A DNA stretch of 42,199 bases. Origin: Candidatus Nanoarchaeia archaeon (GTDB lineage Archaea > Nanobdellota > Nanobdellia > Woesearchaeales > DSVV01). The first letter of the stretch is position 1; each line of letters begins with the position of its first letter. Made by a program: the position numbers and the translations under genes. The notes under the pieces were generated by a model. That model saw only the letters and a list, made by a program, of their open reading frames with translations. It ran no database searches and was not told the origin of the DNA. Positions 3,018 to 37,168 of the stretch are shown here, piece after piece. Where the stretch lies: contig JBMCCQ010000003.1 in assembly GCA_048618745.1 (NCBI GenBank), forward strand, positions 1 through 42,199. The letters run 5' to 3'.

Positions 3018-4040
3018 TTAAGCAATTCCTCCAAAGACAGAGCCAATTATCTTTGAGAGCACAAGATATAATAATTGTGAAGAAACAATATAAAGCGGAA
3101 TATATTTTAATCCGCCCTTAATATTTCCTCTCTCGATTATTGATACAATTAGTGATGCAAAAAACGCAATTATTAAAAGAGAAACATGGGAAAAGGTATC
3201 AAATATTTCCTTATCAAGCTTAATTTCAGTAATATCCATCCCTATAGGGTTATCGCTTGAGCCAAGGGATGTAGCCAAAACATTTACAACACTTTTAATT
3301 ATCTCAAACAATCCTTTTGAAAGAGAAAACAAGGCAGGGGCAATAACCATTACAACAATTGAGATAAATATTACATACCCTAAAACAGAAGCCGAAATTT
3401 CTTCTTTTAGCTCTTTAGTTTTTTCAAAGTTCTCAATAATCTTATCAATTATCGGTGCAACAGAGCCACCCTCCTGGAGCTCGCCTACTAAAAGGTCAAT
3501 TGAGCGCTTAAGCATGGGTGAGTCATATTTATCAGAAAACTCCATTAATGCATTTTCAATATCATGTCCAGTCATTACCTTTTTCGCAGCAATTCCTATC
3601 TCGTTTGCAAGAATCCCAAATTCAGGCTTGATAGCTCCCCACATTGCCTTATCAAAGGGCAGCCCACCTTTAAGGTTTGATGAGAGAACCTCAAAAAAAT
3701 GAGGAAGCACCTCTTCAAGCTGTTTTGTCCGCTGGTATATCTTAATGTCAAGGAAAAAATAAATTGCCAAAACAGTTATACCAACAAGTGCAAAAGTTAA
3801 AAGAACTATTGTGATAAAGGCTACAAGCCCGGAGAGCATGGGTGAGACATCCTGCAGTAGCGGCAGGATATAAACCAGATAGATAAAGAGAGAAAAACCA
3901 AAGCACAGGTAAAACATAAGCCCGAAAAATGAGTATGGCTCATTGTTTATGCCTGCCTTTAACAAATATTTTCTCAGGTTAGGCCTTAGTCTTTTAGGTA
4001 CAAATGCTCTTCCGAATTCGTAAGTGAATGGGATATTCAT
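3018..4040 (-). CDS. Type IV pilus platform membrane protein (T2SSF; TadC/FlaJ-like)
   Basis: Multiple TM helices; 'LPHFFEVLSSNLKGGLPFDKA...PEFGILANE' T2SSF pattern; in an operon with the ATPase. Confidence 0.85.
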   Translation of the reverse strand: MNIPFTYEFGRAFVPKRLRPNLRKYLLKAGINNEPYSFFGLMFYLCFGFSLFIYLVYILPLLQDVSPMLSGLVAFITIVLLTFALVGITVLAIYFFLDIKIYQRTKQLEEVLPHFFEVLSSNLKGGLPFDKAMWGAIKPEFGILANEIGIAAKKVMTGHDIENALMEFSDKYDSPMLKRSIDLLVGELQEGGSVAPIIDKIIENFEKTKELKEEISASVLGYVIFISIVVMVIAPALFSLSKGLFEIIKSVVNVLATSLGSSDNPIGMDITEIKLDKEIFDTFSHVSLLIIAFFASLIVSIIERGNIKGGLKYIPLYIVSSQLLYLVLSKIIGSVFGGIA

Positions 4041-4873
4041 TAAATGTTCACCGCCTTTCTGGAGCTTTTAAACACAGTAATAAAGATAAACTGGATTATA
4101 AACAAAAGTATCCATATACCGTAAAACAAGGCGCTTGCACTGCTTTGATCACTTAACAGCCCTACAAGCGAGCCGATAACCGTAATAATTGCCGCACCCA
4201 GTGAGGGAATTACAATTGCAACCACCATGTAAAATAATGAAAGGGTATTAAGCTTTTTACTGTATCTTTTAATCTCATTTAACTGGTCTTTTGCTATTTC
4301 GTCAAGCTTTCTGTCAAGGGATTGTGTCACATCAACGCCAATTTTAAGCGAGTTATTTATCTGGAACAGGATTTTCTTGAATTTTTCAGACGGAGTGTAC
4401 TTCATTGCGTTTTCAAGGGCCTGCTCAATTGAGCTTCCCATGTTGATTTCATCCACAATTTCCTTAAAGTATTTCCCTGCAACGCCGTATCCTTTTGAAG
4501 CTTCAATAAGGCAATTAAGAAGTGGTTTTCCTGAATAAAGCTTTACCAGAAGAAACCTTCCTGCAAACAACACCTCTTTGTCAAGGTCTCTTTGCCTTTT
4601 TTTTATAGTTGTTAAGGGTGATTTTATTACCACAAAAAATGAGACAAACGATGATATTAATAGTATAGGCAGCAATAATATAAGATTAATTCCGGCCACG
4701 CTGAACATAAAAAAGAAAAACACAGTTATTCCAATGCCAATAAAAAAAGCGCCGTTTAAAGCTTTTTTTACAAACGCTTCGGGCGTGTCTTTTAGATGTG
4801 CAATCCTAAGCTCGGTGGGCAAATTAGGAAATAATTTTGCTGTGGCTCTTATTAAATCAACAATTATTACCAC
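4040..4873 (-). CDS. Second type IV pilus platform protein (T2SSF; TadB/TadC-like)
   Basis: TM helices and 'FKEIVDEINMGSSIEQALE'; adjacent to the ATPase. Confidence 0.85.
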   Translation of the reverse strand: MVIIVDLIRATAKLFPNLPTELRIAHLKDTPEAFVKKALNGAFFIGIGITVFFFFMFSVAGINLILLLPILLISSFVSFFVVIKSPLTTIKKRQRDLDKEVLFAGRFLLVKLYSGKPLLNCLIEASKGYGVAGKYFKEIVDEINMGSSIEQALENAMKYTPSEKFKKILFQINNSLKIGVDVTQSLDRKLDEIAKDQLNEIKRYSKKLNTLSLFYMVVAIVIPSLGAAIITVIGSLVGLLSDQSSASALFYGIWILLFIIQFIFITVFKSSRKAVNI

Positions 4874-4876
4874 CCG

Positions 4877-6376
4877 TCAGGATTTATTATCTTCAAGCTC
4901 AAGGCGCCCCCTGTAAAACTTTGAAAAAATGAGCCCTATTCTTTGAAGGGATTCAATATCATTTTCAACCAGCCACTCAATAATTTTTTTCCTTTTGTCA
5001 ATTTCTTTTTCCAGCTGCTCTTCTGAGATCCCTGCATATAGGTTAAGAAGCTTATTTATAACCTTAAACTCCCCCACTTTTTTTACTTTGCTTTCTGCAA
5101 CATCAAACCTGTACACCGTATTAACATCTCCTTGTGATGTGACTTCGGCAAACTCAAACATTCTTCTTGTGTTATCTTTTCTGTTCCTGTTTTGAACCAG
5201 TATGACATTTAGCGCCCCCAGAAGGTTTTTTGGAAGGTCAATGGGAGGGTTGCTCAGTCTGCTTATTACCTCCTCGGCAGTATTTGCGTGAAATGTCCCG
5301 TATACACTATGGCCTGTATGCATGGCTTCAAATAAAACCTCTGCCTCTTCCTTTCTCCTGATTTCACCCATAATTATCCTGTCTGGCCTCATTCTCAGCG
5401 AATTCATCACGAGGTCAAGCATTGTCACGCCGCCCTTTCCTTCAGGGTTAGGTGAGCGCGTTGCCATGGGCACCCAGTGAAGCTGTGGCGGAAGCTGAAG
5501 CTCTCTTGTATCCTCGATAGAAATAATTCTTTGGTTAGCAGGGATAAAGCCTGAAACAGTGTTTAGCATAGAAGTCTTACCAGAGCCTGTTCCCCCGGCA
5601 ATTATTATTGACAATTCATACTCTATGCACAGCCATAAAAGTGCTGCTGTATAATAATCAACAGTCTTATTCTTAATCATCCTCGTGATATTCCACGGCA
5701 CAGAAGAGAATTTCCTTATTGTTAGCGTGTTGCCTTTAGTTGAAATGGGGGAAAACGTTGCATTAACCCTGTCTCCTGTTAAAAGATGTGCATCCAGAAG
5801 CGGATTGAGGTTTGTAATCTCTTTTGAGACATCCCTTGCAATCATTGTTGAAAAATGCTTAATCCTTCCTTCTGTTGGGACTACAATGTTTGTTTTCATC
5901 CACCCGTGAGTCCTGTGGTAAAGCCAAACCGGCTCCTGAGAATTGTTTACAACAATTTCTTCAACCATGCTGTCTTTTAATAAAATTTCAAGATAACCAA
6001 GGCCAAGGTTTTGCTCAATTACATAATTCATAAGCATTTCATGGGTCTTCTCATCAGCATTAGGAAAATATTTTGTCAAAAGAACCATTATCTCTTTTCT
6101 GAATTCTTCTTTGAGCTGCTCTACCCCACCACCCTCACTAATCTCAATTGCTCCTATTCCAACCTGGCTGATAAACTCCTCTCTTATCTTTTCAAGAATA
6201 ACCTTGGTGGTTTTTGTCATATTTGTAATGTTTACTTCATAAACTGGTACAGGGTCTACTGCCCTGAAAAAAATGTTTACATCAATAAGTGTATTGTTTA
6301 CATTAAGTTTATATGAATCAAGCCATTCATCAGAAATATCTTTTTCTTTAATCTCCACTTTGGATGATTTTTTCAT
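4877..6376 (-). CDS. Type II/IV secretion ATPase (CpaF/TadA/FlaI-like)
   Basis: Walker A GGTGSGKT, Asp box 'SIEDTREL', 'LRMRPDRIIMGEIR', His box 'TGHSVYGTFHA'. Confidence 0.95.
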   Translation of the reverse strand: MKKSSKVEIKEKDISDEWLDSYKLNVNNTLIDVNIFFRAVDPVPVYEVNITNMTKTTKVILEKIREEFISQVGIGAIEISEGGGVEQLKEEFRKEIMVLLTKYFPNADEKTHEMLMNYVIEQNLGLGYLEILLKDSMVEEIVVNNSQEPVWLYHRTHGWMKTNIVVPTEGRIKHFSTMIARDVSKEITNLNPLLDAHLLTGDRVNATFSPISTKGNTLTIRKFSSVPWNITRMIKNKTVDYYTAALLWLCIEYELSIIIAGGTGSGKTSMLNTVSGFIPANQRIISIEDTRELQLPPQLHWVPMATRSPNPEGKGGVTMLDLVMNSLRMRPDRIIMGEIRRKEEAEVLFEAMHTGHSVYGTFHANTAEEVISRLSNPPIDLPKNLLGALNVILVQNRNRKDNTRRMFEFAEVTSQGDVNTVYRFDVAESKVKKVGEFKVINKLLNLYAGISEEQLEKEIDKRKKIIEWLVENDIESLQRIGLIFSKFYRGRLELEDNKS

Positions 6377-8315: not shown

Positions 8316-9290
8316 TTATTTCGGCTCGCAGTATGGGTCTGGAGGTGGATAATTCCATGTGTCTGACATATTTAAGCCATATATGTTCATGTACTCGCTG
8401 TCAAGCTTAAAGCCTAAAGATTCAGGTTGCTCACTTAACCAGGTGAAATTGTACAATGGGTAATATCCGTTTGTACAGCTTCTCTCCCCGCTCCAGAACA
8501 AATGATCAACCCAGCTTCTCTTTTCATGTGCTGATGTTGTAATCATTGTTGAATTTATCAACGACTCTATTCCGCAGCATGCTGACTCATCATAATTCTC
8601 TTCAATTCTCATAATAAAGCTTGGCGCAAGCTCCACATGCCTGTATGTCCTGTTAATCAGCATATCGTAGGTGGCGCTCATGTTATAATCATAGCGTCTG
8701 CTTGTTTCAATATAATTTGTATAGCCGTATCTCAGGTATAGGGGGTCTTCATATTCAATAATTGCAAATGTTGAATTAACAGTTCTCCTGGAGTCATAGC
8801 TCAGATTCCCCTTTGTGGCATTTATAATAATATCAGCATATGTGGTTATCTCCCATGGGTTGTGTTGCGTAATCCTGGGGTTGACTATTTCAATATCTGC
8901 CTGTATTCCAAGAAACCGAGCCCCTTCATCTTCTATATCATTTGAGAGGGCATTAAGTGTACTCCCCCCCATTTTTGGTGCATCCGACCCATAAATAGTT
9001 GCATGGGTTACAAGCTCCTCAAAAGCATTCTGAGTATCTGAAATATCTCCTCCATTTTCAAGATATTCAAGCATTGCCTCCACTGCATGTACAGACTGCA
9101 TATGCAAAGCATGCTTTGCATAATTTTCCGTGGTGCTTTTATAGAGATGTAGTATTGTGTATTCAGATTCAGCCACATCAAATGCCTTAATGTTTACCAG
9201 TTGATGTGTGCCCGTGAATGCCACTAGCATAAGGGTAATAATACTCATGGCCATTAATGTAAAAAACATGCCCTTTTTAGCTAGCGCCAT
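8316..9290 (-). CDS. Large pilin-like protein with a class III signal peptide
   Basis: Start ATG 9290 gives MALAKKG|MFFTLMA followed by a hydrophobic helix. Confidence 0.7.
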   Translation of the reverse strand: MALAKKGMFFTLMAMSIITLMLVAFTGTHQLVNIKAFDVAESEYTILHLYKSTTENYAKHALHMQSVHAVEAMLEYLENGGDISDTQNAFEELVTHATIYGSDAPKMGGSTLNALSNDIEDEGARFLGIQADIEIVNPRITQHNPWEITTYADIIINATKGNLSYDSRRTVNSTFAIIEYEDPLYLRYGYTNYIETSRRYDYNMSATYDMLINRTYRHVELAPSFIMRIEENYDESACCGIESLINSTMITTSAHEKRSWVDHLFWSGERSCTNGYYPLYNFTWLSEQPESLGFKLDSEYMNIYGLNMSDTWNYPPPDPYCEPK

Positions 9291-9808
9291 GTTCTTACCT
9301 CCACCCTGTAAGGCCCCCATAATTCTGTTTCATTATAAATTCCGCTGATAACTGTTTTAGAAGGTATTAACACTGTTCCCTCGTCCTGGGGTTTGCGGGT
9401 TTCATTGTAAATAAGCTCTTCTTCAATATAAAATGCATAACTATACCCTTGGGCAAGAAAGTCGCCTGAAACATCTGAGAGGCTGTTTCTTATAAGCTGC
9501 TTGCAAAAATAACAACTTTTGTTTTCTGCCCTGTAATAAAACTCTCCCAGCTGAACCAGCAGCCTGTTGTCAATGTTTGTGATGTTTTCATCCTTATGGA
9601 GCTGCCTCTTTGGCCCCAGATATTCACTGTTTATATCCTTTATCCTGTGAGTATACAAAAATTCCATAATGTTGTTTGATAAAAACGAAACCTGTCGTTC
9701 AGGAGTTTCATAGTTGAAAAAAGATAGAGCAAGGACTATTCCCAATACAAGTACAAAAAGTGCAATAACCGCATCCACCACAAAAAAATATCCCTTTTTA
9801 TATCGCAT
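9281..9808 (-). CDS. Minor pilin-like protein with a class III signal peptide
   Basis: MRYKKG|YFFVVDAVIAL plus hydrophobic helix; C-terminal 'WGPYRVEVRTW'. Confidence 0.75.
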   Translation of the reverse strand: MRYKKGYFFVVDAVIALFVLVLGIVLALSFFNYETPERQVSFLSNNIMEFLYTHRIKDINSEYLGPKRQLHKDENITNIDNRLLVQLGEFYYRAENKSCYFCKQLIRNSLSDVSGDFLAQGYSYAFYIEEELIYNETRKPQDEGTVLIPSKTVISGIYNETELWGPYRVEVRTWR

Positions 9809-10149
9809 TATCCGCTCCTTTTCTCCGGAACCGGGCAGTCACCGCAGCCTGCAAATAACTCCTCACCTATCTTTTCAACATTTTCACCGTCTGAAGTAAA
9901 ATAAATGCACGCTGACTTATTTGTGCCTAGTAACTCTTTTAACTCTTCACAATCGAGTGAGCTTAGATAAGCTTCTTCTTGCTCATCAATTTCACCATCT
10001 CCGGTTATGTCTGAAAGTGTTGCATACGAGGTAACAGTATCTGGATTATCAGCCTGGCTGTAAAGGGTAAAAACACCTAATGCCATAACAACAAAAAGCA
10101 CAAAAAGGTCAAAACTAACCTGTATTTTATCTGCCTCTTTTTCCCCCAT
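9808..10149 (-). CDS. Membrane-anchored paralog of the adjacent pilin-like protein
   Basis: TM helix; 'LDCEELKELLG...ACIYF' matches the neighbour's 'MNCTEIKELFE...ICIYF'. Confidence 0.7.
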   Translation of the reverse strand: MGEKEADKIQVSFDLFVLFVVMALGVFTLYSQADNPDTVTSYATLSDITGDGEIDEQEEAYLSSLDCEELKELLGTNKSACIYFTSDGENVEKIGEELFAGCGDCPVPEKRSG

Positions 10150-10157
10150 TCTAACAC

Positions 10158-10565
10158 CTAAATAATAGTTCCGCAGCTTTTATTGCCTATTTCAACTCCT
10201 TCACAGCCTACGCCCAATTTATGAATTGTCCCGTTAGTCAAAGGAACGACATTTCTTTCTGAATCCCTGAAATATATACAAATATCAAGCTTTGACTCAA
10301 ATAGCTCCTTAATCTCGGTACAATTCATTTCAACAAGCCTTGCCTCTTCCTCCTCACTAAGAGAATCGTCTTCAAATATTACATTTTCGCGCAGCCTGTG
10401 CACAAGCACCTCGCTGTTTGCTGTTAGCTCACTTTCTGCCCCCTGCAGGCTTATAAAACTGTAAAATGCAACAACAGTTGTAAGAAACAATCCTATTGCA
10501 AGGTACGAGTCAATTGAAAGGGTCTGTCCCTTATTATGAAAGCCACCTGTTTTAATAATATTCAC
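10158..10565 (-). CDS. Minor pilin-like protein with a class III signal peptide
   Basis: 'NKG|QTLSIDSYLAIGLFL' motif. Confidence 0.75.
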   Translation of the reverse strand: MNIIKTGGFHNKGQTLSIDSYLAIGLFLTTVVAFYSFISLQGAESELTANSEVLVHRLRENVIFEDDSLSEEEEARLVEMNCTEIKELFESKLDICIYFRDSERNVVPLTNGTIHKLGVGCEGVEIGNKSCGTII

Positions 10566-15374: not shown

Positions 15375-16292
15375 TTATTTTTCAATTAGCTTTTCATCCT
15401 TTACCAAAGTCCCGAAATGCCTGCCACCTTTTTCAAATCTTGTTAAGATCTTATCACCTTCACTCAGTTTTGTTACTGGTTTACTGCCTTCAGATGTCAC
15501 TACCCTTATTGTCTCTGCGTTTTGTAGAATTGCCTTTGCTGTCTGTTTACCTGAATTATTTGATACCTCCACAAGCACAAGGGGGCGAACTTCAAGTTTT
15601 GCCCTTCCTACAATACTGTTTCTTGTTATCCCCTTCCTGTTTACAACCAACACCTCATCGCCTGAAGAAATTTCTTCAAGATACCTTGTCTTTTTGCCTG
15701 TTAATGTATACATTGAAACAGCGCCTGCATTTACCCTGAATGGCCTTGGGGAGACAAAGGGGTTTTTTTCAACTTCAGCCTGCACAAGAATCATCCCCTG
15801 CGAGCTGCTTCCAACAAGCATCCCTTCGCCTTCATCCATCATGTCGCATGTGTCAATACATGCCCTGACACCCATCCCTAATGGTTTTATTTTTTGTACT
15901 TTTGCCTCTGTCAGCTTGTATTCCTTATTGGCAGTGATTAACTCCATTGTTTTTTTTAGTTCAGTTATATCGTTTGTCTCTAACACAACACCGTCTGCAC
16001 CAAGCTCGAGTGCCTCCATTGCAAGTTTGGCCTCATCCGCATTTTTTACCTTAACTAAAAGCTCAGTTTTTCCCTTAAGCTCTGCGACTAAATTTTCAAG
16101 GGGAATAATTTTTTGCCCTGTAAATTCAATAAGCACCCTCTCCCCTGCAGTATTTACAATATTTTGCTCGTCTTCTTTGCTTTTTATTTTAAACTTTTCA
16201 AGCTTACCGGCTTCTTCATAAAGTGTAAGGCCTAAAAGTTTTGCCTCGTTTTTTAGCTCCTTGTCATTTGTTTTTATTATCAGTTTTTTCAT
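15375..16292 (-). CDS. aroB': 3-dehydroquinate synthase II
   Basis: 'IIPLENL', 'RACIDTC', 'GEGMLVGS', 'RPFRVNAGAV', 'ILQNAETIR', 'GRHFG'. Confidence 0.93.
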   Translation of the reverse strand: MKKLIIKTNDKELKNEAKLLGLTLYEEAGKLEKFKIKSKEDEQNIVNTAGERVLIEFTGQKIIPLENLVAELKGKTELLVKVKNADEAKLAMEALELGADGVVLETNDITELKKTMELITANKEYKLTEAKVQKIKPLGMGVRACIDTCDMMDEGEGMLVGSSSQGMILVQAEVEKNPFVSPRPFRVNAGAVSMYTLTGKKTRYLEEISSGDEVLVVNRKGITRNSIVGRAKLEVRPLVLVEVSNNSGKQTAKAILQNAETIRVVTSEGSKPVTKLSEGDKILTRFEKGGRHFGTLVKDEKLIEK

Positions 16293-16299
16293 AATGCCT

Positions 16300-17100
16300 T
16301 CACCTCGTCTTAACCTGCACTTCCATTACTTCTAGTGCCTCTTCAACAGTTTTTTCCTCAACAATAATTTCTCTTAAGGCATTAACTATTCTTTCAGGGC
16401 TCTCATGCTGGAATGCATTCCTTCCTAGTGAAATTCCTGCAGCGCCGCCTTTCATTGCGCCATTTACCATTTCTAAAACATCTTTATCAGTTTCACATTT
16501 TGGTCCGCCCGCAATTACAACCGGGACAGGGCAGCCTTGTGTTACCTTTTTGAAGCTTTCAGGGTCTCCGGTGTAACTTGTTTTTACAATATCTGCTCCA
16601 AGTTCTGCTGCTACTCTTGTAACCATTGCAATATTTTCAGCATCCATTGAATCTTTAATATTGTCCCCCCTCGGGTAGGCCATAGCAAGAAGCGGCATCT
16701 GCATTTTTTCGCAATCTTCTGCAATCTTAGCCATGTCCTTAATCATTTCCGGCTCTGCAATATTTCCACCTATATTCAGGTGGACTGACACGGCATCGGC
16801 ACCAAGCTTTACTGCCTCTTTGACACAACCCACCAACACTTTGCCGTCAGGGTTAGATGAGAATTTCGTGCTTGCAGAAAGATGCATTATAATTCCGCAA
16901 CTGGTTGTTTTTTGTAGGTTCTTAATTATGCCCTTATGAAGCACAACCCCTGTAGCACCCCCTTTATCAATTTTTGGAACTGTTTCATTCATATCCTCGA
17001 TACCCTGCACGGGTCCTTTAGTCGTGCCATGGTCCATTGGAATAATCACGGCCTTGCCATTGTTTGTTATCCTGTTAAGTCTTATATCTTTTCCATTCAT
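16300..17100 (-). CDS. aroA': 2-amino-3,7-dideoxy-D-threo-hept-6-ulosonate (ADH) synthase (DhnA-type aldolase)
   Basis: 'IPMDHG', 'MHLSAST', 'AELGADIVKT', 'IAGGPK'; lies between asd and DHQ synthase II. Confidence 0.88.
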   Translation of the reverse strand: MNGKDIRLNRITNNGKAVIIPMDHGTTKGPVQGIEDMNETVPKIDKGGATGVVLHKGIIKNLQKTTSCGIIMHLSASTKFSSNPDGKVLVGCVKEAVKLGADAVSVHLNIGGNIAEPEMIKDMAKIAEDCEKMQMPLLAMAYPRGDNIKDSMDAENIAMVTRVAAELGADIVKTSYTGDPESFKKVTQGCPVPVVIAGGPKCETDKDVLEMVNGAMKGGAAGISLGRNAFQHESPERIVNALREIIVEEKTVEEALEVMEVQVKTR

Positions 17101-17102
17101 TT

Positions 17103-18125
17103 TTATCCCTCCAGTATTTTTTTTGCAAATAAAAGTTCAGCATTAAGGATGCTGCCTCCGGCAGCCCCCCTTATTGTATTGTGCCCTAACAAGTGGAACC
17201 TAAAATCCAGAATTTTATCCTCTTTAAGCCGGCCCACTACAACACTCATCCCTTTCTCTGTGTTTTTATCAAGCCTTGGCTGCGGCCTTTCTTCATCTTC
17301 AATGTAGTGTATAGGTTTTTTGGGCGCAGACGGAAGTTCAAGCTCCTGCGGCAGACTGCTGTAGTTTCTAAAAGCTTCTATTACTTCGCCTTTTGTTGCT
17401 TTTTTTAAAAGCTTTACACTAATGCATTCCAAATGCCCGTCTGTTACATTTACTCTGTTGCAGCTTGCACTTACTTTAATTTCTGCATTAGTTACTTTGT
17501 TTTTTTCTATTTTTCCCAAAAGTTTCAGGGGCTCGGTTTCCACCTTTTCCTCTTCACCATTTATATGAGGCAGGACATTACCTGCAATATCCATTGAGGA
17601 GACTCCCGGGTAGCCTGCACCTGAGAGAGCCTGCATTGATACAACTGAGACTTTTTCAAGACCGAATTCATCATGAAGGGGCTTTAATGCCAAAACCAGC
17701 TGCGTTGTTGTGCAGTTAGCATTAGTTATAATAAAGCCTTTTTTGCCCTTGACAAGCTCAAGATGCTCAGGATTTACCTCTGGAATAACTAAAGGAACAT
17801 CCTCATCCATCCTGTGTGCGCCTGCGTTACTTGCAACCACTTTGCCTTCATTTACAAGTTTTGTTTCATATTCAGCTGCAGCATCTGAGGGAAGCGCTGA
17901 AAACACAAGCCTGCTTTCAATCCTGTCATTAAGTCCCTTAATCTTCATATTCGCGAACTTCTCTGGAAAATCAAACAGTCTGAATTTGCATGCCTCCTTT
18001 AGGCTCTTTCCCTTGGAGCGCTCGCTTGCAATTATTTCATTTACCTCAAACCAAGGGTGGTTTTGCAAAAGCTGTAGGAATCTTTGCCCGACTGCTCCCG
18101 TTACCCCTGCTATTGCTACTTTCAT
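17103..18125 (-). CDS. asd: Aspartate-semialdehyde dehydrogenase (archaeal type)
   Basis: 'GVTGAVGQRF', catalytic 'NANCTT', 'QALSGAG', 'HNTIRGAAG'. Confidence 0.95.
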   Translation of the reverse strand: MKVAIAGVTGAVGQRFLQLLQNHPWFEVNEIIASERSKGKSLKEACKFRLFDFPEKFANMKIKGLNDRIESRLVFSALPSDAAAEYETKLVNEGKVVASNAGAHRMDEDVPLVIPEVNPEHLELVKGKKGFIITNANCTTTQLVLALKPLHDEFGLEKVSVVSMQALSGAGYPGVSSMDIAGNVLPHINGEEEKVETEPLKLLGKIEKNKVTNAEIKVSASCNRVNVTDGHLECISVKLLKKATKGEVIEAFRNYSSLPQELELPSAPKKPIHYIEDEERPQPRLDKNTEKGMSVVVGRLKEDKILDFRFHLLGHNTIRGAAGGSILNAELLFAKKILEG

Positions 18126-19339
18126 AAAGACACCTCCAAAATTTTTTTTGCTTTTTTTGCAAGAGTACTGTCAACAAGAATATCTGCTTCACAACCGCTT
18201 GTGCTGATATCTGCTATGTTAATCCCGTGCTTTGCAAGTAATGTTCCAATTTTGCCAAGAACTCCTTTTTTAATGGCAAAATCAATGCCTGTTACTGTTA
18301 TAAGTGTAATATCTTTTATTGATGTAACAGCAGTCAGGTTTTTGTTTTTCTCAACAATAGAGTGCAACACATGCAATGCTTTTACCCTGTTTTTTTTGTC
18401 GACATAAAAACAAATTGAGTACTTTGATGCAGACACTGAGTAAATGTTAATCTTGTTTTTTGCCATTTGCTCAGAGAAATGGGCCAACAGCCCCGGCATC
18501 TCATCCATTCTTTTTCCAATCACTGTGACTGCAGATTTATTTTCGCTTAGTTTTACATCAACACACCTATTTAAGGTCCCTGTAACAAGCGTTCCTGATG
18601 TAAGCAAATCACCGTTATCAAAGTTAACTATTCTTACACCAACATCTTCTGGCTTGTAGATTAAAGAGCTTTGGCATAATACCTCGCCGCCCTTAAGGCT
18701 TAAGTTAAGGGCTTCTTCAACTGTTATCTCTTTTAATTTTCTCGCATCTTTAACAGTATTTGGCTCGCCTGATAAAATCCCCGGAACATCTTTTAAAAGA
18801 ATAACTTGTTTTGGCTTTAGGATTTTACCTAAAACAACAGCTGTTGTATCTGAGCCCCCTCTTCCGATAGTTGTTACTTTACCCCCCTTTGTTCTTCCTA
18901 TAAAACCCGGGACAACAGGGATTACTTTGTTTTTTATTAGTGGCAAAAGTTTAGTTTTGGTTTTCTTTTTAGTCTCATCAATCAGGATTTCTGCCTGGCC
19001 ATGCCTGTTATCCGTAATTATTGGGAAATTGTCATTTACCTGCAGCGCTTTTGCCTTCAGACCTGAATTATTAAGCGCGGAAACAAGAATTCTTGCACTC
19101 AACTGCTCTCCTTCACTTAAGATATTGTCAATATGGCCTGGGTCTTTTTTACTGTGGGTATTTTTGGCCACATCCATTAATGAATCTGTCATTCCTTTAA
19201 GGGCAGACACCACCAAAATAGGCAGTAAGCCTTTTTTTCTCACACTCTTTATTTTTTCAACAATTTGCTTTATTGTTTTACCTTCGGCTAAACACGAGCC
19301 ACCTACTTTAATTACTACGACGGAACGGGCAATGCCCAC
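18122..19339 (-). CDS. lysC: Aspartate kinase with C-terminal ACT domains (start uncertain; see findings)
   Basis: 'VIKVGGS', 'VVSALKGMTD', 'TTIGRGGSDTTA', 'KDVPGI', two ACT-like repeats. Confidence 0.92.
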   Translation of the reverse strand: MGIARSVVVIKVGGSCLAEGKTIKQIVEKIKSVRKKGLLPILVVSALKGMTDSLMDVAKNTHSKKDPGHIDNILSEGEQLSARILVSALNNSGLKAKALQVNDNFPIITDNRHGQAEILIDETKKKTKTKLLPLIKNKVIPVVPGFIGRTKGGKVTTIGRGGSDTTAVVLGKILKPKQVILLKDVPGILSGEPNTVKDARKLKEITVEEALNLSLKGGEVLCQSSLIYKPEDVGVRIVNFDNGDLLTSGTLVTGTLNRCVDVKLSENKSAVTVIGKRMDEMPGLLAHFSEQMAKNKINIYSVSASKYSICFYVDKKNRVKALHVLHSIVEKNKNLTAVTSIKDITLITVTGIDFAIKKGVLGKIGTLLAKHGINIADISTSGCEADILVDSTLAKKAKKILEVSL

Positions 19340-19386
19340 GATACGGGCGACCCCCCACGATTTTTGTTATTGTTTTCAACATTTGT

Positions 19387-19521
19387 CTCACCTCGTATAA
19401 GCTATCTTGTTTACCTTGTGCGCCCGGAACAGAATACACAACCAATGTGGTTGTCAGAAGGCCCGGACGCGCTCTCTAAAAATAAAAGCTAAAGTACTGG
19501 TAAAAGAAGCTATAAACTGAG
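19387..19521 (-). promoter_or_regulatory. Putative attenuator RNA structure upstream of the aspartate kinase operon
   Basis: By-eye pairings: GCGUCCGGG (19470-19462) with UCCGGGCGC (19428-19420); ACAACCA/UGGUUGU (19454-19438); leader codons 19521-19499 partly complementary to 19415-19387, which includes the SD GAGGUGA. Confidence 0.55.
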
Positions 19522-19565
19522 CTAGGAAAATCTTTCACACTCCCAATAATTTTGCCTATGCTCAT
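19476..19565 (-). CDS. Putative Phe/Tyr-rich leader peptide (29 aa), missing from the ORF track
   Basis: Manual translation MSIGKIIGSVKDFPSSVYSFFYQYFSFYF*; 9 of the last 12 codons are Phe/Tyr; directly upstream of an aromatic-precursor operon. Confidence 0.7.
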   Translation of the reverse strand: MSIGKIIGSVKDFPSSVYSFFYQYFSFYF

Positions 19566-19591
19566 AATTCTTTTTTGTAGGAAACAACTTA

Positions 19592-19606
19592 TTTTTATAT
19601 TTTTCG
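19592..19606 (-). promoter_or_regulatory. BRE + TATA promoter for the leader/aspartate kinase operon
   Basis: Minus strand CGAAAA-A-TATAAAAA, ending 26 nt before the leader ATG, consistent with a (nearly) leaderless transcript. Confidence 0.7.
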
Positions 19607-19619
19607 ACCGGGACAAATA

Positions 19620-19871
19620 TTATTTTTTGGTGCTTCTTTTCCATACTATTTCTTCTTTCTTTTTTATCATCCTTATCCTGTGGAGAGGAATATTAATAGT
19701 TTCACCTTCAAAATTGTCAAAAACAAGCAAATTGTCTTGAATGTTTGCCTTATTTAGTTTCAGTTCTTCAAGTTTCTTTTCTACACGGTCATAATACATT
19801 AAGGCGTAATCGTCAATGTTTTCTCTTGGATCCCACTTGATTTTGTTCAGGAATTCTTTTTCTGTTAACAT
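19620..19871 (-). CDS. DUF504 / MJ1316-like small protein
   Basis: 'LNKIKWDP...YYDR...IPLHRIRMI...IVWKR'. Confidence 0.85.
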   Translation of the reverse strand: MLTEKEFLNKIKWDPRENIDDYALMYYDRVEKKLEELKLNKANIQDNLLVFDNFEGETINIPLHRIRMIKKKEEIVWKRSTKK

Positions 19872-19961
19872 AATATTCAGAAATATTCGCTAATTTAAAA
19901 AATGTAATTTACTTGATTTTGTAGAAAATTTTTTATAATAAGTAAAAATCAAAGTTTTGCT

Positions 19962-20249
19962 ATGAGCAGAATAAGACATATTGTACTTGATGTATTAAAG
20001 CCGCATGAACCGCCTGTAACTGATATCTGCTCTTCCATAGGTGACCTGGAGGGGGTAGACGGAGTAAATGTTACAGTAATGCAGGTCGACAAAGACGTAG
20101 AGGGCGTCAAAGTTACAATTAAGGGCGAAAATATTGATGTAGGCCAGGTAGAAAAAGTTATTGAGGACAGTGGCTGCGCAATCCATAGTATTGATAAGGT
20201 AAGCTGTGGTGAAGAGATAGTAAAAGACGCTCCAACCCCACAGGATTAA
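19962..20249 (+). CDS. DUF211 family protein
   Basis: 'IVLDVLKPHEP', 'GVDGVN', 'AIHSIDKVSCG'. Confidence 0.9.
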   Translation: MSRIRHIVLDVLKPHEPPVTDICSSIGDLEGVDGVNVTVMQVDKDVEGVKVTIKGENIDVGQVEKVIEDSGCAIHSIDKVSCGEEIVKDAPTPQD

Positions 20250-20250
20250 G

Positions 20251-20760
20251 ATGCTTCGCCTTATAATCAGAGGATTGGTAGATGGGGCATTATCCAGTCT
20301 AGGTGTAGTTATTGGTGCATCTCTATCTAATGATATGGCAATTGTTCTTTCTGCAGGACTTTCAGGAGCGGTTGCAAACGGCTTTTCTAATATAATGGCT
20401 GCTTTTACTGCTGAAAAAACAGGAAGATACGTTGACCTTAATAAGCTTGAAAAAAAGATGATGAAGTCTTTAAAGGGAACGAGACATGAAAGAGCTATTG
20501 AAAAAGAGGTTATGAAGGGAGGAATATATGATGGTGTGGCAAGTTTTTTTGGCGGGGCAATACCTATTTTGCCGTTTTTATTTTTGGATGGAACTGCCGC
20601 ATTGTCTACTGCAATAGGCCTTGTAGGAGTGCTGGCAGTGGTTTTGGGCATAAACACAAGCCTTCATTCAAGAGAGAACATGTTTTTCAGCGTTACTAAG
20701 ATGCTGGTATTTACATTTGCCACAGCAGGAATATGTGTTTCTATACAGTATTTATTTTAG
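20251..20760 (+). CDS. VIT1/CCC1-family membrane protein
   Basis: 'GLVDGALSSLGVVIGA', 'GGAIPILPF'; commonly paired with DUF211. Confidence 0.85.
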   Translation: MLRLIIRGLVDGALSSLGVVIGASLSNDMAIVLSAGLSGAVANGFSNIMAAFTAEKTGRYVDLNKLEKKMMKSLKGTRHERAIEKEVMKGGIYDGVASFFGGAIPILPFLFLDGTAALSTAIGLVGVLAVVLGINTSLHSRENMFFSVTKMLVFTFATAGICVSIQYLF

Positions 20761-20971
20761 TTTTTTCATGATTTAAGTTCTTTTGTAAATGATTAACTTG
20801 TAAAATCAGCAAAAAGGGGAGTTTGTGTTTTAGCACTTGGCAGGTTATTTTTAACAAAGTTTGTGCCCTTATGGTTGCTGTTTTTATGTTGCAGTTCATA
20901 TTATTGTAAATGTAATCTTTTCAGATATCTTGCAGTAATATTTATATAATGCTTAAAGCAGTATAATATAT

Positions 20972-21469
20972 ATGATTAAGATAAGAAAGGCTAAAGTAAG
21001 TGATGCAGAAGGCATTGGAGAGATGAGAAAAGAGGGTTTTAAAAGAAAGGCCTGGCCGTATAGCGGCAGAAAAAGATTTACAAAAAAGGGAATTGATGAA
21101 TTAAGGGATGAGTTATCTTCAAAGTCTACTAGATGTTTTATTGCAATAGATACTAACACAAAAAGAATAGTTGGCTCAGTTAATTGTGATAGTGGAAAGG
21201 GCAGGTTAAGGCATAGAGTTGGTTTAGGCTGGGGAGTGCATCCTGATTATATGGGCCAGGGTATTGGCACTAAATTATTGCAGCGTGCTTTAGATGATGC
21301 TAAAAAAAGAGGCTTTAAGAGAGCTGAAGCAGAGATGGCGGTTAAGAATACTCCCTCCTGGAAGATGGCATTAAACTGCGGGTTTAAGATTGAAGGGCAG
21401 AAGAAAAAAGGGTTTTTAACTGATGACGGCAAGTATATAGATACATATGTTGTGGGTAAGATCTTGTAA
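20972..21469 (+). CDS. GNAT family N-acetyltransferase
   Basis: AcCoA motif 'VHPDYMGQGIGTKLL' and 'CGFKIEG'. Confidence 0.9.
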   Translation: MIKIRKAKVSDAEGIGEMRKEGFKRKAWPYSGRKRFTKKGIDELRDELSSKSTRCFIAIDTNTKRIVGSVNCDSGKGRLRHRVGLGWGVHPDYMGQGIGTKLLQRALDDAKKRGFKRAEAEMAVKNTPSWKMALNCGFKIEGQKKKGFLTDDGKYIDTYVVGKIL

Positions 21470-22701: not shown

Positions 22702-22920
22702 ATGACCAGAAAATTTAATGTTCTAATTGAGCAGGATGAAGATGGAACATTTATTGGAAGAGTTCCTGAATTAAAGGGTTGTATTACGCAGGGTGATTCA
22801 TTGGATGAACTTATGAAAAACATGAAAGAAGCCGTTGAATTATACCTTGAAATTGAGGACGGACAGAATAATGAAGAAAAGATAAGATTCTTAGGTGTTC
22901 AGCAAATTGAGGTTGCTTAA
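22702..22920 (+). CDS. hicB: HicB family antitoxin
   Basis: 'VPELKGCITQGDSLDELMKNMKEAVELYLE'. Confidence 0.92.
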   Translation: MTRKFNVLIEQDEDGTFIGRVPELKGCITQGDSLDELMKNMKEAVELYLEIEDGQNNEEKIRFLGVQQIEVA

Positions 22921-23147
22921 TGAAGTTGCCAAGGTTGTCTTCTAAGGAATTATGTAAATTTCTTGAAAAGGAAGGTTTTTGTGCAATAAGGCAAAAAGGG
23001 AGTCATAAATTCTATAGGCATCCTGATGGAAGGACTACTTTGGTTCCTGTTCATTCAAACAAGGAAATCAGCCGGGGGCTTTTAAAAGGTATCCTGGAAG
23101 AAATTGAAATGAAAAGAGAAGAGTTCTTTAAAAGATTTAAAAAATAA
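22920..23147 (+). CDS. hicA: HicA family toxin (mRNA interferase)
   Basis: 'GFCAIRQKGSHKFYRHPDGRTTLVPVH...GLLKGIL'; TAATG overlap with hicB. Confidence 0.92.
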   Translation: MKLPRLSSKELCKFLEKEGFCAIRQKGSHKFYRHPDGRTTLVPVHSNKEISRGLLKGILEEIEMKREEFFKRFKK

Positions 23148-37064: not shown

Positions 37065-37168
37065 CGCTGGCCTTGAGCGGCGACGTATCAAAGGTTCGTA
37101 AGGCTTTGGCCTTCGCCCAAAACAGCCAGTCCCTTCGGGGATTCCCGGTTCGAATCCGGGCCGCAGCG
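37040..37168 (+). tRNA. tRNA-Ser(UGA) with a 46-nt intron at 37/38 (37078-37123)
   Basis: Acceptor GCTGCGG/CCGCAGC, anticodon stem CTGGC/GCCAG, anticodon TGA 37074-37076, long variable arm, GGTTCGAATCC T-arm, G discriminator, BHB-like splice motif; CCA not encoded. Confidence 0.93.

Follow-up and report, generated by a model that had tools for sequence, protein, structure and literature searches.

A candidate ribosome-mediated sensor of aromatic tRNA charging upstream of an archaeal aspartate kinase operon

Here we analyze a putative regulatory element located upstream of the aspartate kinase (AK) gene of a Candidatus Nanoarchaeia archaeon of the order Woesearchaeales, within a stretch of 42,199 nucleotides spanning positions 1 to 42,199 of contig JBMCCQ010000003.1 (assembly GCA_048618745.1), hereafter the window. 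The element combines a short leader open-reading frame (ORF) ending in a cluster of phenylalanine and tyrosine codons, a stable two-tier hairpin (P1) and a Shine-Dalgarno (SD) sequence, SD1. With a probability of about 0.8, we consider that it uses the ribosome, in one way or another, to sense the charging of aromatic tRNAs. The best explanation we can offer is that the sensed species is charged Phe/Tyr (and perhaps Trp) tRNA and that the element acts on translation, not through a hairpin-plus-U terminator. Because an aromatic leader and a conserved structure precede an aromatic operon with no convincing terminator, translational control is the most natural reading, as a first-pass annotation of the sequence had proposed; the SD-masking step that it placed at the center of the mechanism fared less well.

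The aromatic leader ORF and the P1 hairpin

Coordinates refer to the window and to its minus strand unless stated otherwise; the genome to which the window belongs (G000) comprises 0.89 Mb in 73 contigs, with 38% G+C and a completeness of 68%. Along the minus strand, the element consists of a TATA-like box, the leader ORF, P1, a 25-nt spacer, the sequence GAGGUGA and an ATG at 19382. The leader ORF (19476-19565) contains 29 codons followed by a TAG stop (19478-19476) and encodes the peptide MSIGKIIGSVKDFPSSVYSFFYQYFSFYF. Its translation delineates a candidate regulatory codon cluster (Y18, F20, F21, Y22, Y24, F25, F27, Y28 and F29; 19479-19514), with Phe and Tyr making up nine of the 13 C-terminal residues. 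This aromatic score ties for first among the 6551 ATG-initiated ORFs of 15-60 aa in G000. The one other small ORF with a score of 9, on contig C27, overlaps the end of a metK-like gene and lies antisense to another ORF; it was considered as a second leader and taken as a chance occurrence.

Judging from comparative sequence analysis, the leader ORF is real and recurs in three other archaeal lineages. In G003, a genome of the same genus with an AK 73% identical to that of the window, the leader MEMKSDSIRFGGDFVSSIYGFFGYWFGFYF precedes the same four-gene operon. Loci L015 and L016, from G+C-rich genomes (AK 44% identical), carry the leader MENASLRT[IV]VATLTSSFGTTTWFGF, with a tail reading ...TSSFGTTTWFGF and a hairpin that begins at the stop codon. 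In locus L014 of genome G418 (AK 57% identical), a 42-aa ORF with seven Tyr and two Phe residues heads an 11-gene cluster. Across these leaders, the type of aromatic residue agrees with the operon product.

In the window, the operon is composed of genes assigned through Pfam to AK (18122-19339; AA_kinase and ACT domains, first in-frame start GTG 19339), aspartate-semialdehyde dehydrogenase (ASD; 17103-18125), a DeoC-family aldolase, or ADH synthase (16300-17100), and 3-dehydroquinate synthase II (DHQ synthase II; 15375-16292), with start and stop codons that overlap or lie 2-7 nt apart. The archaeal route to aromatic amino acids begins at aspartate semialdehyde (compare PMC4162585), and the four genes of the operon correspond to its first steps. 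AK stands first in the operon because aspartate semialdehyde is the archaeal precursor of dehydroquinate. The 11-gene cluster of G418 begins with these four genes as well (AK-ASD-ADH synthase-DHQ synthase II-aroD-aroE-aroK-aroA-aroC-tyrA-aminotransferase), and therefore this type of AK serves aromatic synthesis.

The TATA-like box TATAAAAA (19592-19599) is located 26 nt before the leader ATG at 19565, and a comparable AT-rich box precedes the leader ATG by 25 nt in G003 and by 21-29 nt in L014, L015 and L016. No SD sequence was found upstream of the leader ATG in the window or in any of the compared leaders. The leader mRNA is probably leaderless or near-leaderless, taking the TATA-like box as the guide to its transcription start.

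The P1 hairpin (19420-19470) is formed by a 9-bp outer stem, in which GCGUCCGGG (19470-19462) pairs with UCCGGGCGC (19428-19420), and by a cap at 19454-19438 that constitutes a perfect 7-bp hairpin (ACAACCA/UGGUUGU). The first-pass annotation had spotted this GC-rich stem and cap 5 nt past the leader stop; both are exactly where it placed them, and every fold made in this work recovered them. With all structures predicted at 37 °C and standard salt for an organism from brine, P1 reaches -23.0 kcal/mol, versus -13.1 ± 2.4 kcal/mol for shuffled sequences (z -4.1), and none of 200 shuffles was as stable. The G003 hairpin (-21.1 kcal/mol; z -4.5; 0 of 200 shuffles) begins 4 nt after the leader stop and keeps the outer stem with one G-C to G.U replacement, closing it with an unrelated perfect 7-bp hairpin, and the L015 hairpin (-20.0 kcal/mol; z -3.4; 1 of 200 shuffles) starts 0-1 nt after the stop. 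In a near-identical strain (run X3, record 6), a change at 19423 turns a U.G pair of P1 into U-A. These folding models indicate that P1 is real and conserved as a structure.

P1 was also considered as a repeated element and rejected as such, given that the 9-nt sequence of its 5′ arm occurs a single time in the assembled G000. Pairing of the P1 internal loop with the conserved AAGG downstream of the hairpin, to form a pseudoknot, was likewise rejected on geometric grounds, since the linker is just 2 nt long. Searching 18000-21000 against Rfam with E-values up to 10 yielded no relevant match, and L002 (the G003 locus), L014 and L015 produced no match at the gathering score. The absence of a hairpin-plus-U terminator between leader and gene, as initially annotated, stands in that no convincing one was detected, with the qualification that a scan of the interval between leader and AK returned one weak site (versus 0.4 ± 0.7 expected), composed of the inner hairpin of P1 and a broken U-rich tail, GTATTCTGTT. 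To our knowledge, the archaeal polymerase does not use hairpin terminators.

Additional features were observed in the vicinity of the compared leaders. The N-terminal extension of the L015 AK (...SWDGSFTTTVVLK; L015:2254-2530) resembles the leader peptide of the same locus (...TSSFGTTTWFGF), and by this resemblance the L015 leader may stem from a duplication of the 5′ end of the AK gene. In G418, the TGA of the Tyr-rich ORF overlaps an SD sequence (L014:2440-2475), and a chain of overlapping ATGA start-stops (ATG CAA TGA, ATG AGA TGA, ATG AAC ...) runs into AK. The gene that diverges upstream codes for a protein combining an ACT domain with DUF7523, possibly a regulator that binds amino acids. 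In the window, the frame of the leader is open through P1, and read-through of its TAG into the downstream ORF (ORF2) was considered; in G003 the two corresponding ORFs do not share a frame and a TAA is reached shortly afterwards, so the open frame of the window was taken as a coincidence.

Predicted masking of the Shine-Dalgarno sequence

As a specific mechanism we tentatively put forward, at somewhat short of even odds, translational attenuation based on the pairing of leader codons with the spacer and SD1, clamped by P1 and relayed by ORF2. The mRNA would probably begin at or just before the leader ATG at 19565. With aromatic tRNAs charged, the 29-codon leader would be read to its stop and the ribosome would depart, leaving the pyrimidine-rich Phe/Tyr codons free to pair with the purine-rich spacer and SD1 in an outer helix (P0); the stable P1, 5 nt past the stop, would close P0 and hold it in register, allowing few starts at ATG 19382. 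A ribosome waiting at the aromatic codons would instead cover the 5′ strand of P0, freeing SD1 for translation of ORF2, which in turn would melt a GC-rich hairpin (19356-19327) that buries a run of G residues and the AK GTG. AK would then be made, and the three downstream genes would follow through tight coupling. In this scheme, we infer the transcription start, the stalling at aromatic codons, the role of P0 as a switch and the hand-over from ORF2 to AK.

P0 was assessed with segment folds and shuffles. Its proposed 5′ arm (19499-19521) spans codons S16 to Q23, and its 3′ arm (19387-19415) contains SD1 and the blocks CAAGGU and AUAGCUUA, which are shared with G003; the arm sequences and pairings quoted in the first-pass annotation were all confirmed at these minus-strand positions. 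Folded in isolation, segment 19521-19387 has a minimum free energy of -42.5 kcal/mol in a structure made up of P0 and P1, with seven of the eight nucleotides of GAGGUGAG paired. The P0 duplex with the originally proposed arms amounts to -14.4 kcal/mol, a value matched by 13-32 of 1000 shuffles and reached by 0.6% of 2000 random genomic 29-mers. In the isolated G003 segment the SD sequence, there AUGGAGGGA, is paired with Ser-Ile-Tyr codons, and the arms defined by homology reach -11.1 kcal/mol, as do 5% and 10% of 1000 shuffles. Pairs read off single-sequence folds of the window and G003 include one changed on both sides (A-U to C-G) and two changed on one side. In partition-function ensembles computed over four 3′ ends, the probability of SD pairing with the last 45 nt of the leader is 0.16-0.48 in the window, 0.12-0.67 in G003 and 0.65-0.73 in L015, and the 3′ end of the leader is the most frequent partner region of the SD sequence in most constructs.

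The stalling step was modeled by masking a 28-nt ribosome footprint codon by codon and computing the free energy required to open the region from SD1 through the AUG, with stalled values taken for ribosomes on codons of the 3′ half of the leader, from about codon 15. For the window RNA extending to 45 nt past the GTG (about 19565-19292), the opening cost is 7.0 kcal/mol in the free state, 4.9-6.7 kcal/mol with a stalled ribosome and 7.0 kcal/mol with the ribosome at the stop, a gain of 0.3-2.1 kcal/mol upon stalling. G003 yields 4.1-4.2 (free), 1.4-6.4 (stalled) and 5.5-7.7 kcal/mol (at stop) over both constructs, and its most effective stall positions bring the cost down to 1.4-2.1 kcal/mol, with gains of up to 2-2.7 kcal/mol. 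The corresponding values are 11.3, 4.2-8.5 and 7.0 kcal/mol for L016, and 7.7, 4.4-9.9 and 6.0 kcal/mol for L015.

Several observations weigh against the masking mechanism. The window arms of P0 had been picked for their pairing, and with unbiased 50-nt and 40-nt flanks 28-34% (window), 18.5% (G003) and 22-27% (L015) of 200 dinucleotide shuffles do equally well. The best duplex between leader and ribosome-binding site (RBS), at -7.3 in the window, is equaled when the leader is shuffled in 71% (window), 69% (G003) and 3% (L015) of 1000 cases. Likewise, 55-70% of 60 codon-permuted leaders in the window and 42-55% in G003 mask the SD sequence equally or better, compared with 12-15% in L015. In L015 and L016 the arms defined by homology do not stand out (20-51% of shuffles equal them), and in the full free RNA the CUCA meant for UGAG pairs with the UGAGC of the leader's own 5′ end. 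An alignment spanning P0 and the island at 19269-19365/8 is possible for just two sequences, those of the window and G003, two further lineages being known from contig tables only, and P1 is wholly absent from L014. The short window construct (RNA to AUG+30) shows no opening of the SD upon stalling (3.1 kcal/mol free, 3.4-5.8 stalled, 3.6 at stop), and stalling at W22/F23 in L015 raises the cost to 9.5-9.9 kcal/mol. The leader's presumed pathway is, moreover, incomplete as assembled, because mid-pathway enzymes were not found: chorismate synthase, EPSP synthase, type I DHQ dehydratase and homoserine dehydrogenase were not detected in G000 or in G003 (86% complete), and neither were aroD, aroE, aroK, aroA and aroC in G000 (Pfam and tblastn) or the aroD (type I), aroA and aroC Pfam families in G003, where aroE and aroK were not searched. 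Both genomes hold the first four steps, to dehydroquinate, and G000 contig C4:38-2756 carries an aminotransferase-tyrA-(pheA-like) cluster; the gap in the middle of the pathway either reflects genes unassembled in both genomes or is a true absence or split, perhaps shared with a host.

On balance, the models make P0 masking of the SD a borderline, weakly supported proposition, in which the predicted pairing is, for the most part, of the sort that a purine-rich RBS would find in any stretch of UUU/UUC/UAU codons. The helix postulated between leader codons and the SD arm does appear in the minimum free energy structures of the isolated window and G003 segments, and it is no better than that obtained with codon-permuted leaders; the covariation across homologs that had been suggested as a check comes down to the A-U to C-G replacement in G003, set against the ordinary arms of L015 and L016. 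The predicted effect of stalling is mostly in the expected direction, small and dependent on the point at which the RNA is cut. Release of the SD by a stalled ribosome is predicted for G003, L016 and the long window construct, is missing from the short one and is mixed in L015. SD accessibility, whose equality in both constrained folds had been named as grounds for abandoning the idea, is thus neither the same in the two states nor clearly different.

Entry into aspartate kinase and competing explanations

SD1 (GAGGUGA; 19388-19394) lies 5 nt before ATG 19382. GGTGA is found upstream of 32 of 574 long ORFs in G000, versus 0.67% of random 17-mers, and its position peak at -10/-9 equals the spacing of SD1 before ATG 19382, from which it follows that the organism uses SD sequences and that SD1 is optimal. 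The first-pass annotation overlooked which ORF is served by SD1: the AK frame is stopped upstream at 19390-88, 19378-76 and 19369-67, and the distance from ATG 19382 to GTG 19339 is 43 nt (3n+1), so SD1 opens not AK but ORF2 (19308-19382), an out-of-frame ORF of 24 codons encoding MLKTITKIVGGRPYRGHCPFRRSN that overlaps the AK start in the +1 frame and ends 30 nt inside AK, at TAA 19310-19308. G003 displays the same ORF2/AK arrangement. Expression of AK must rely on ribosomes initiating at SD1.

Between ATG 19382 and the AK gene lies the GC-rich hairpin GGG.GGU.CGCCCG[UAUCG]UGGGCAUU.GCCC (19327-19356), which includes a G6 run (19356-19351) also present in G003, has a local stability of about -18 kcal/mol and is predicted to bury the AK GTG. 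The predicted cost of unfolding from G-run to GTG is 14.0 kcal/mol for the window and 8.0 kcal/mol for G003, whose hairpin differs at three points, one in the loop and two in pairs that are retained (C-G replaced by U.G, and U-A replaced by U.G). ORF2 contains one Tyr codon (UAU, 19343-19341, in the hairpin loop) and one Phe codon (UUC, 19325-19323), each after CCG. Contigs of other organisms from the same habitats match the window only over an island at 19269-19365/8, in two records with 85% and one with 95% identity, all gapless, and at the loose ends of the contigs representing two further lineages an ATG that is in frame with ORF2 comes after GGTGAG or GGAGGTGA. Past the GTG, the differences (19322 C/U/A, 19319, 19316 and 19301) are all synonymous in the AK frame and alter the ORF2 peptide; AK is therefore the constrained frame there. 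An imperfect 18-nt direct repeat is also present at 19316-19351 (GUCGCCCGUAUCGUGGGC / AUUGCCCGUUCCGUCGUA; 11 of 18 positions identical), each copy containing GCCCGU and then, in the reading frame of ORF2, an aromatic codon. On a plain reading of these models, the hand-over would consist of ORF2 translation melting the hairpin and a ribosome starting at the GTG with the G-run as its SD, the G-run being 3-4 nt farther from the GTG than the usual SD spacing in the genome.

The same region lends itself to a different account, in which ORF2 is the true entry into AK and ribosomes shift by +1 at the G-run (GGG-G), at CCG-UAU or at CCG-UUC when Tyr- or Phe-tRNA is scarce; unshifted ribosomes would end at TAA 19310-19308, and the leader and P1 would constitute a second control layer or an accessory. 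We regard this hungry-codon frameshift as unlikely, with several observations in its favor. The window, G003 and the two gapless contig lineages all have the +1 offset, and contigs from four runs contain no indel at the G6 run. All six close AK proteins (71-98% identity to that of the window) are 404-413 aa long and devoid of a longer in-frame extension. Relatives at 54-60% identity have an in-frame N-terminal extension (MVGFGGVAFIVGDVFSKT...) homologous to the AK-frame stretch WGVARIVGIARS upstream of the GTG, and for this reason ORF2 and AK were probably once a single ORF. No in-frame start codon is common to all lineages, because Lys takes the place of the GTG start in P0005 (72% identity), and a TTG present in G003 and two variants reads TCG in the window. 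Furthermore, the sole Tyr and sole Phe codons of ORF2 both lie inside the overlap and are kept in G003, the SD-like GGGGGU sits 3 nt before CCG-UAU, and, for a shift at UAU, neither of the two differences that G003 shows between the G-run and the GTG would alter the encoded protein.

These observations must be weighed against the retention of a start-capable codon at the GTG in five of the six close lineages, with a G-run 10-12 nt upstream that can act as an SD. A tRNA-Pro on CCG would be unable to re-pair on CGU; GGG-G does permit re-pairing, but the next codon is an ordinary GGU and the A site is not slowed. The AK-frame codons CGU-AUH and CGU-UCN dictate the presence of Tyr and Phe codons in ORF2, and it is commoner for an overlapping upstream ORF to unmask a buried start. 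The precedent for a programmed +1 frameshift is the prfB type, and the spacing between the SD-like element and the shift codon in Escherichia coli prfB resembles that of GGGGGU-CCG-UAU here. Both systems have a short, well-started zero-frame ORF that terminates shortly past the overlap, a main protein encoded in +1 and an SD-like G-run a few nucleotides before the candidate shift codon. They differ in that the site analyzed here has no in-frame stop at the shift position, offers a P-site tRNA that cannot re-pair at CCG-U and makes a start-capable GTG available in the +1 frame. A combined scheme, in which the leader opens the RBS of ORF2 and the Tyr/Phe codons of ORF2, behind the SD-like G-run, shift starved ribosomes +1 into AK, appears distinctly unlikely; if true, it would amount to a two-stage sensor in which AK is made only when both checks report shortage.

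Aside from entry into AK, control might be exerted on transcription within the leader itself, as the first-pass annotation allowed. The last Phe-Tyr-Phe codons and the U of the stop form a U-rich tract, UUUUAUUUUU (19478-19487), which is a candidate termination signal of archaeal type. In this alternative, the T4AT5 stretch (UUU-UAU-UUU plus U) would end transcription, either intrinsically or via aCPSF1/FttA, and a ribosome waiting on the codons of the tract would cover it and let the polymerase continue. Archaeal polymerases stop at oligo-T without a hairpin. The sequence TTTTATTTTTAG is identical in the window and G003, the end of the operon has similar, weaker T-tracts, and tracts with at least 9 T in 10 positions are seven times more common after stops (1.17/kb in the following 60 nt) than inside long ORFs (0.158/kb). 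Selection against sense-strand T-runs in ORFs was considered and rejected as the cause, base composition explaining most of the deficit, and UUU and UAU are in any case the default codons of a genome with 38% G+C. The tract is absent from L014, L015 and L016, its action would leave P1, SD1 and ORF2 without a role, and intrinsic termination would occur with the ribosome still some 25 nt behind the polymerase. Taken together, these points make termination within the leader quite improbable.

The proposal that the element is no sensor at all has, in our estimate, only a slim chance of being correct. The leader would then be an incidental or untranslated frame, or encode a small hydrophobic protein, and P1 would be a stabilizing or processing hairpin of the 5′-UTR. 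AT-rich genomes do yield frames rich in Phe and Tyr, as the equal score of another small ORF in G000 illustrates; the L014 ORF could be due to chance, and the aromatic pathway is incomplete in G000 and G003. Against this, the ORF, its length, its aromatic tail and the proximity of its stop to a hairpin are kept at 73% and 44% AK identity, and the genomes at 44% identity are G+C-rich, so that aromatic codons are not the default there. The kind of residue agrees with the operon product, and the Tyr-rich ORF of G418 precedes an operon whose cluster includes tyrA. Finally, a four-segment switch of the ermC kind, in which a ribosome at the leader end melts the 5′ arm of P1 and the freed CGGGCG pairs with CGCCCG (19349-19344) to expose the GTG, is highly improbable: the complementarity pointed out in the first-pass annotation exists, is kept in G003 through a G.U pair and has its four segments in the correct order, but it comprises 6 bp that cannot be extended, versus the local hairpin of about -18 kcal/mol, the cost of opening from G-run to GTG stays at 13.7-14.0 kcal/mol in every ribosome state of the window and rises in G003 from 8.0 to 11.1 kcal/mol at the stop, and the natural 19423 variant strengthens P1 and places an uncompensated A.C mismatch in the middle of the alternative helix.

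Genomic context, related systems and implications

The leader-operon module is rare and patchy. A first search of genome contigs with the single AK protein found no relative, and a metagenome search returned one distant locus with 29% identity, which was excluded from comparison; protein comparison identified the six AK proteins at 71-98% identity. DNA of the leader or island was detected in two of 28 genomes of the family, a close AK in one of the 401 genomes sampled from the order and the island pattern in one of the 401 genomes sampled from the phylum. AK was present in two of 17 genomes from the phylum of genome G419 and in one of 39 from the order of G418. Since matches across these genome samples were sparse, only four lineages with DNA could be compared.

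Neighboring genes in G000 encode the archaeal Pfam families MJ1316 and DUF211, and window DNA is present in contigs from hypersaline-lake and microbial-mat runs. The MJ1316-domain protein (83 aa; recognition of RNA 2′,3′-cyclic phosphate ends) is encoded at 19620-19871 and ends 55 nt before the leader ATG; the gene was not found at the equivalent place in G003, where the region upstream of the leader (L002:3000-3990) consists of some 900 nt with no ORF longer than 60 aa, includes some G+C-rich stretches and has no Rfam match at the gathering score. Elsewhere in the window, two adjacent small ORFs of 72 and 75 aa on the plus strand (22702-23147) have sequences resembling a HicB/HicA toxin-antitoxin pair, and a 92-nt tRNA-Glu(UUC) on the same strand (37077-37168) is long enough to accommodate an intron. 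Only 11 tRNAs were detected in a scan of G000. Genes for a T2SSE-type ATPase and a T2SSF-type membrane protein (4040-6376, minus strand) are followed by ORFs without a Pfam family (8316-10565) and probably belong to a pilus or archaellum-like assembly cluster.

Among described systems, the LEU element of Actinobacteria comes closest in design: consecutive Leu codons of a leader ORF and the SD of leuA pair with each other to form the base of a compact structure (Seliverstov et al. 2005; PMC1262725). The two share an upstream ORF with a codon run for the end-product amino acid, do without a terminator and are both computational proposals. The LEU element, in contrast, is bacterial, senses leucine and has no sequence similarity to the one described here. 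It encloses a pseudoknot or alternative hairpin instead of a simple two-tier hairpin, and its SD belongs to the enzyme gene and not to a relay ORF.

Similarity to the trpL, pheL/pheA, hisL and thrL leaders lies in a short leader rich in product codons, directly ahead of the operon, with a stop that adjoins a strong hairpin. The element analyzed here departs from the trpL/pheL type in its archaeal host, in its lack of competing 1:2/2:3/3:4 pairings (the sole competitor of P1 is a 6-bp match), in constrained folds that show no hairpin exchange, and in having neither a hairpin-plus-U terminator nor a match to an Rfam leader family. In the translational attenuation of ermC and cat, stalling of a ribosome on the leader frees a masked SD. 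The mechanism proposed here likewise has a leader-stalled ribosome freeing the RBS of the next ORF with transcription unchanged, but stalling in ermC and cat depends on a drug and on the nascent peptide, whereas uncharged tRNA would be the cause here, and their defined four-segment exchange has a counterpart in this element that was tested and is unsupported.

Leader ORFs on leaderless transcripts have been described in Deinococcus deserti, with 14 predicted cases ahead of amino-acid or tRNA-synthetase genes (PMC4007540). Those leaders resemble the present one in lying at the 5′ end of the transcript and lacking an SD, with the start here deduced from the TATA-like box; they differ in that D. 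deserti is a bacterium, its transcription starts were mapped and its cases were read as transcription attenuators. Full-text literature searches, with supplementary files outside their scope, returned no report of a leader-peptide attenuator in archaea.

Attenuation by leader peptides is a textbook bacterial mechanism. If the reading of this element as a sensor of aromatic tRNA charging is true, archaea would also sense tRNA charging with the ribosome, and would do so by translational means. The element would also set apart a subfamily of aspartate kinases that serves aromatic synthesis specifically and, at about 260 nt, is compact enough that it could be tested in a model archaeon.

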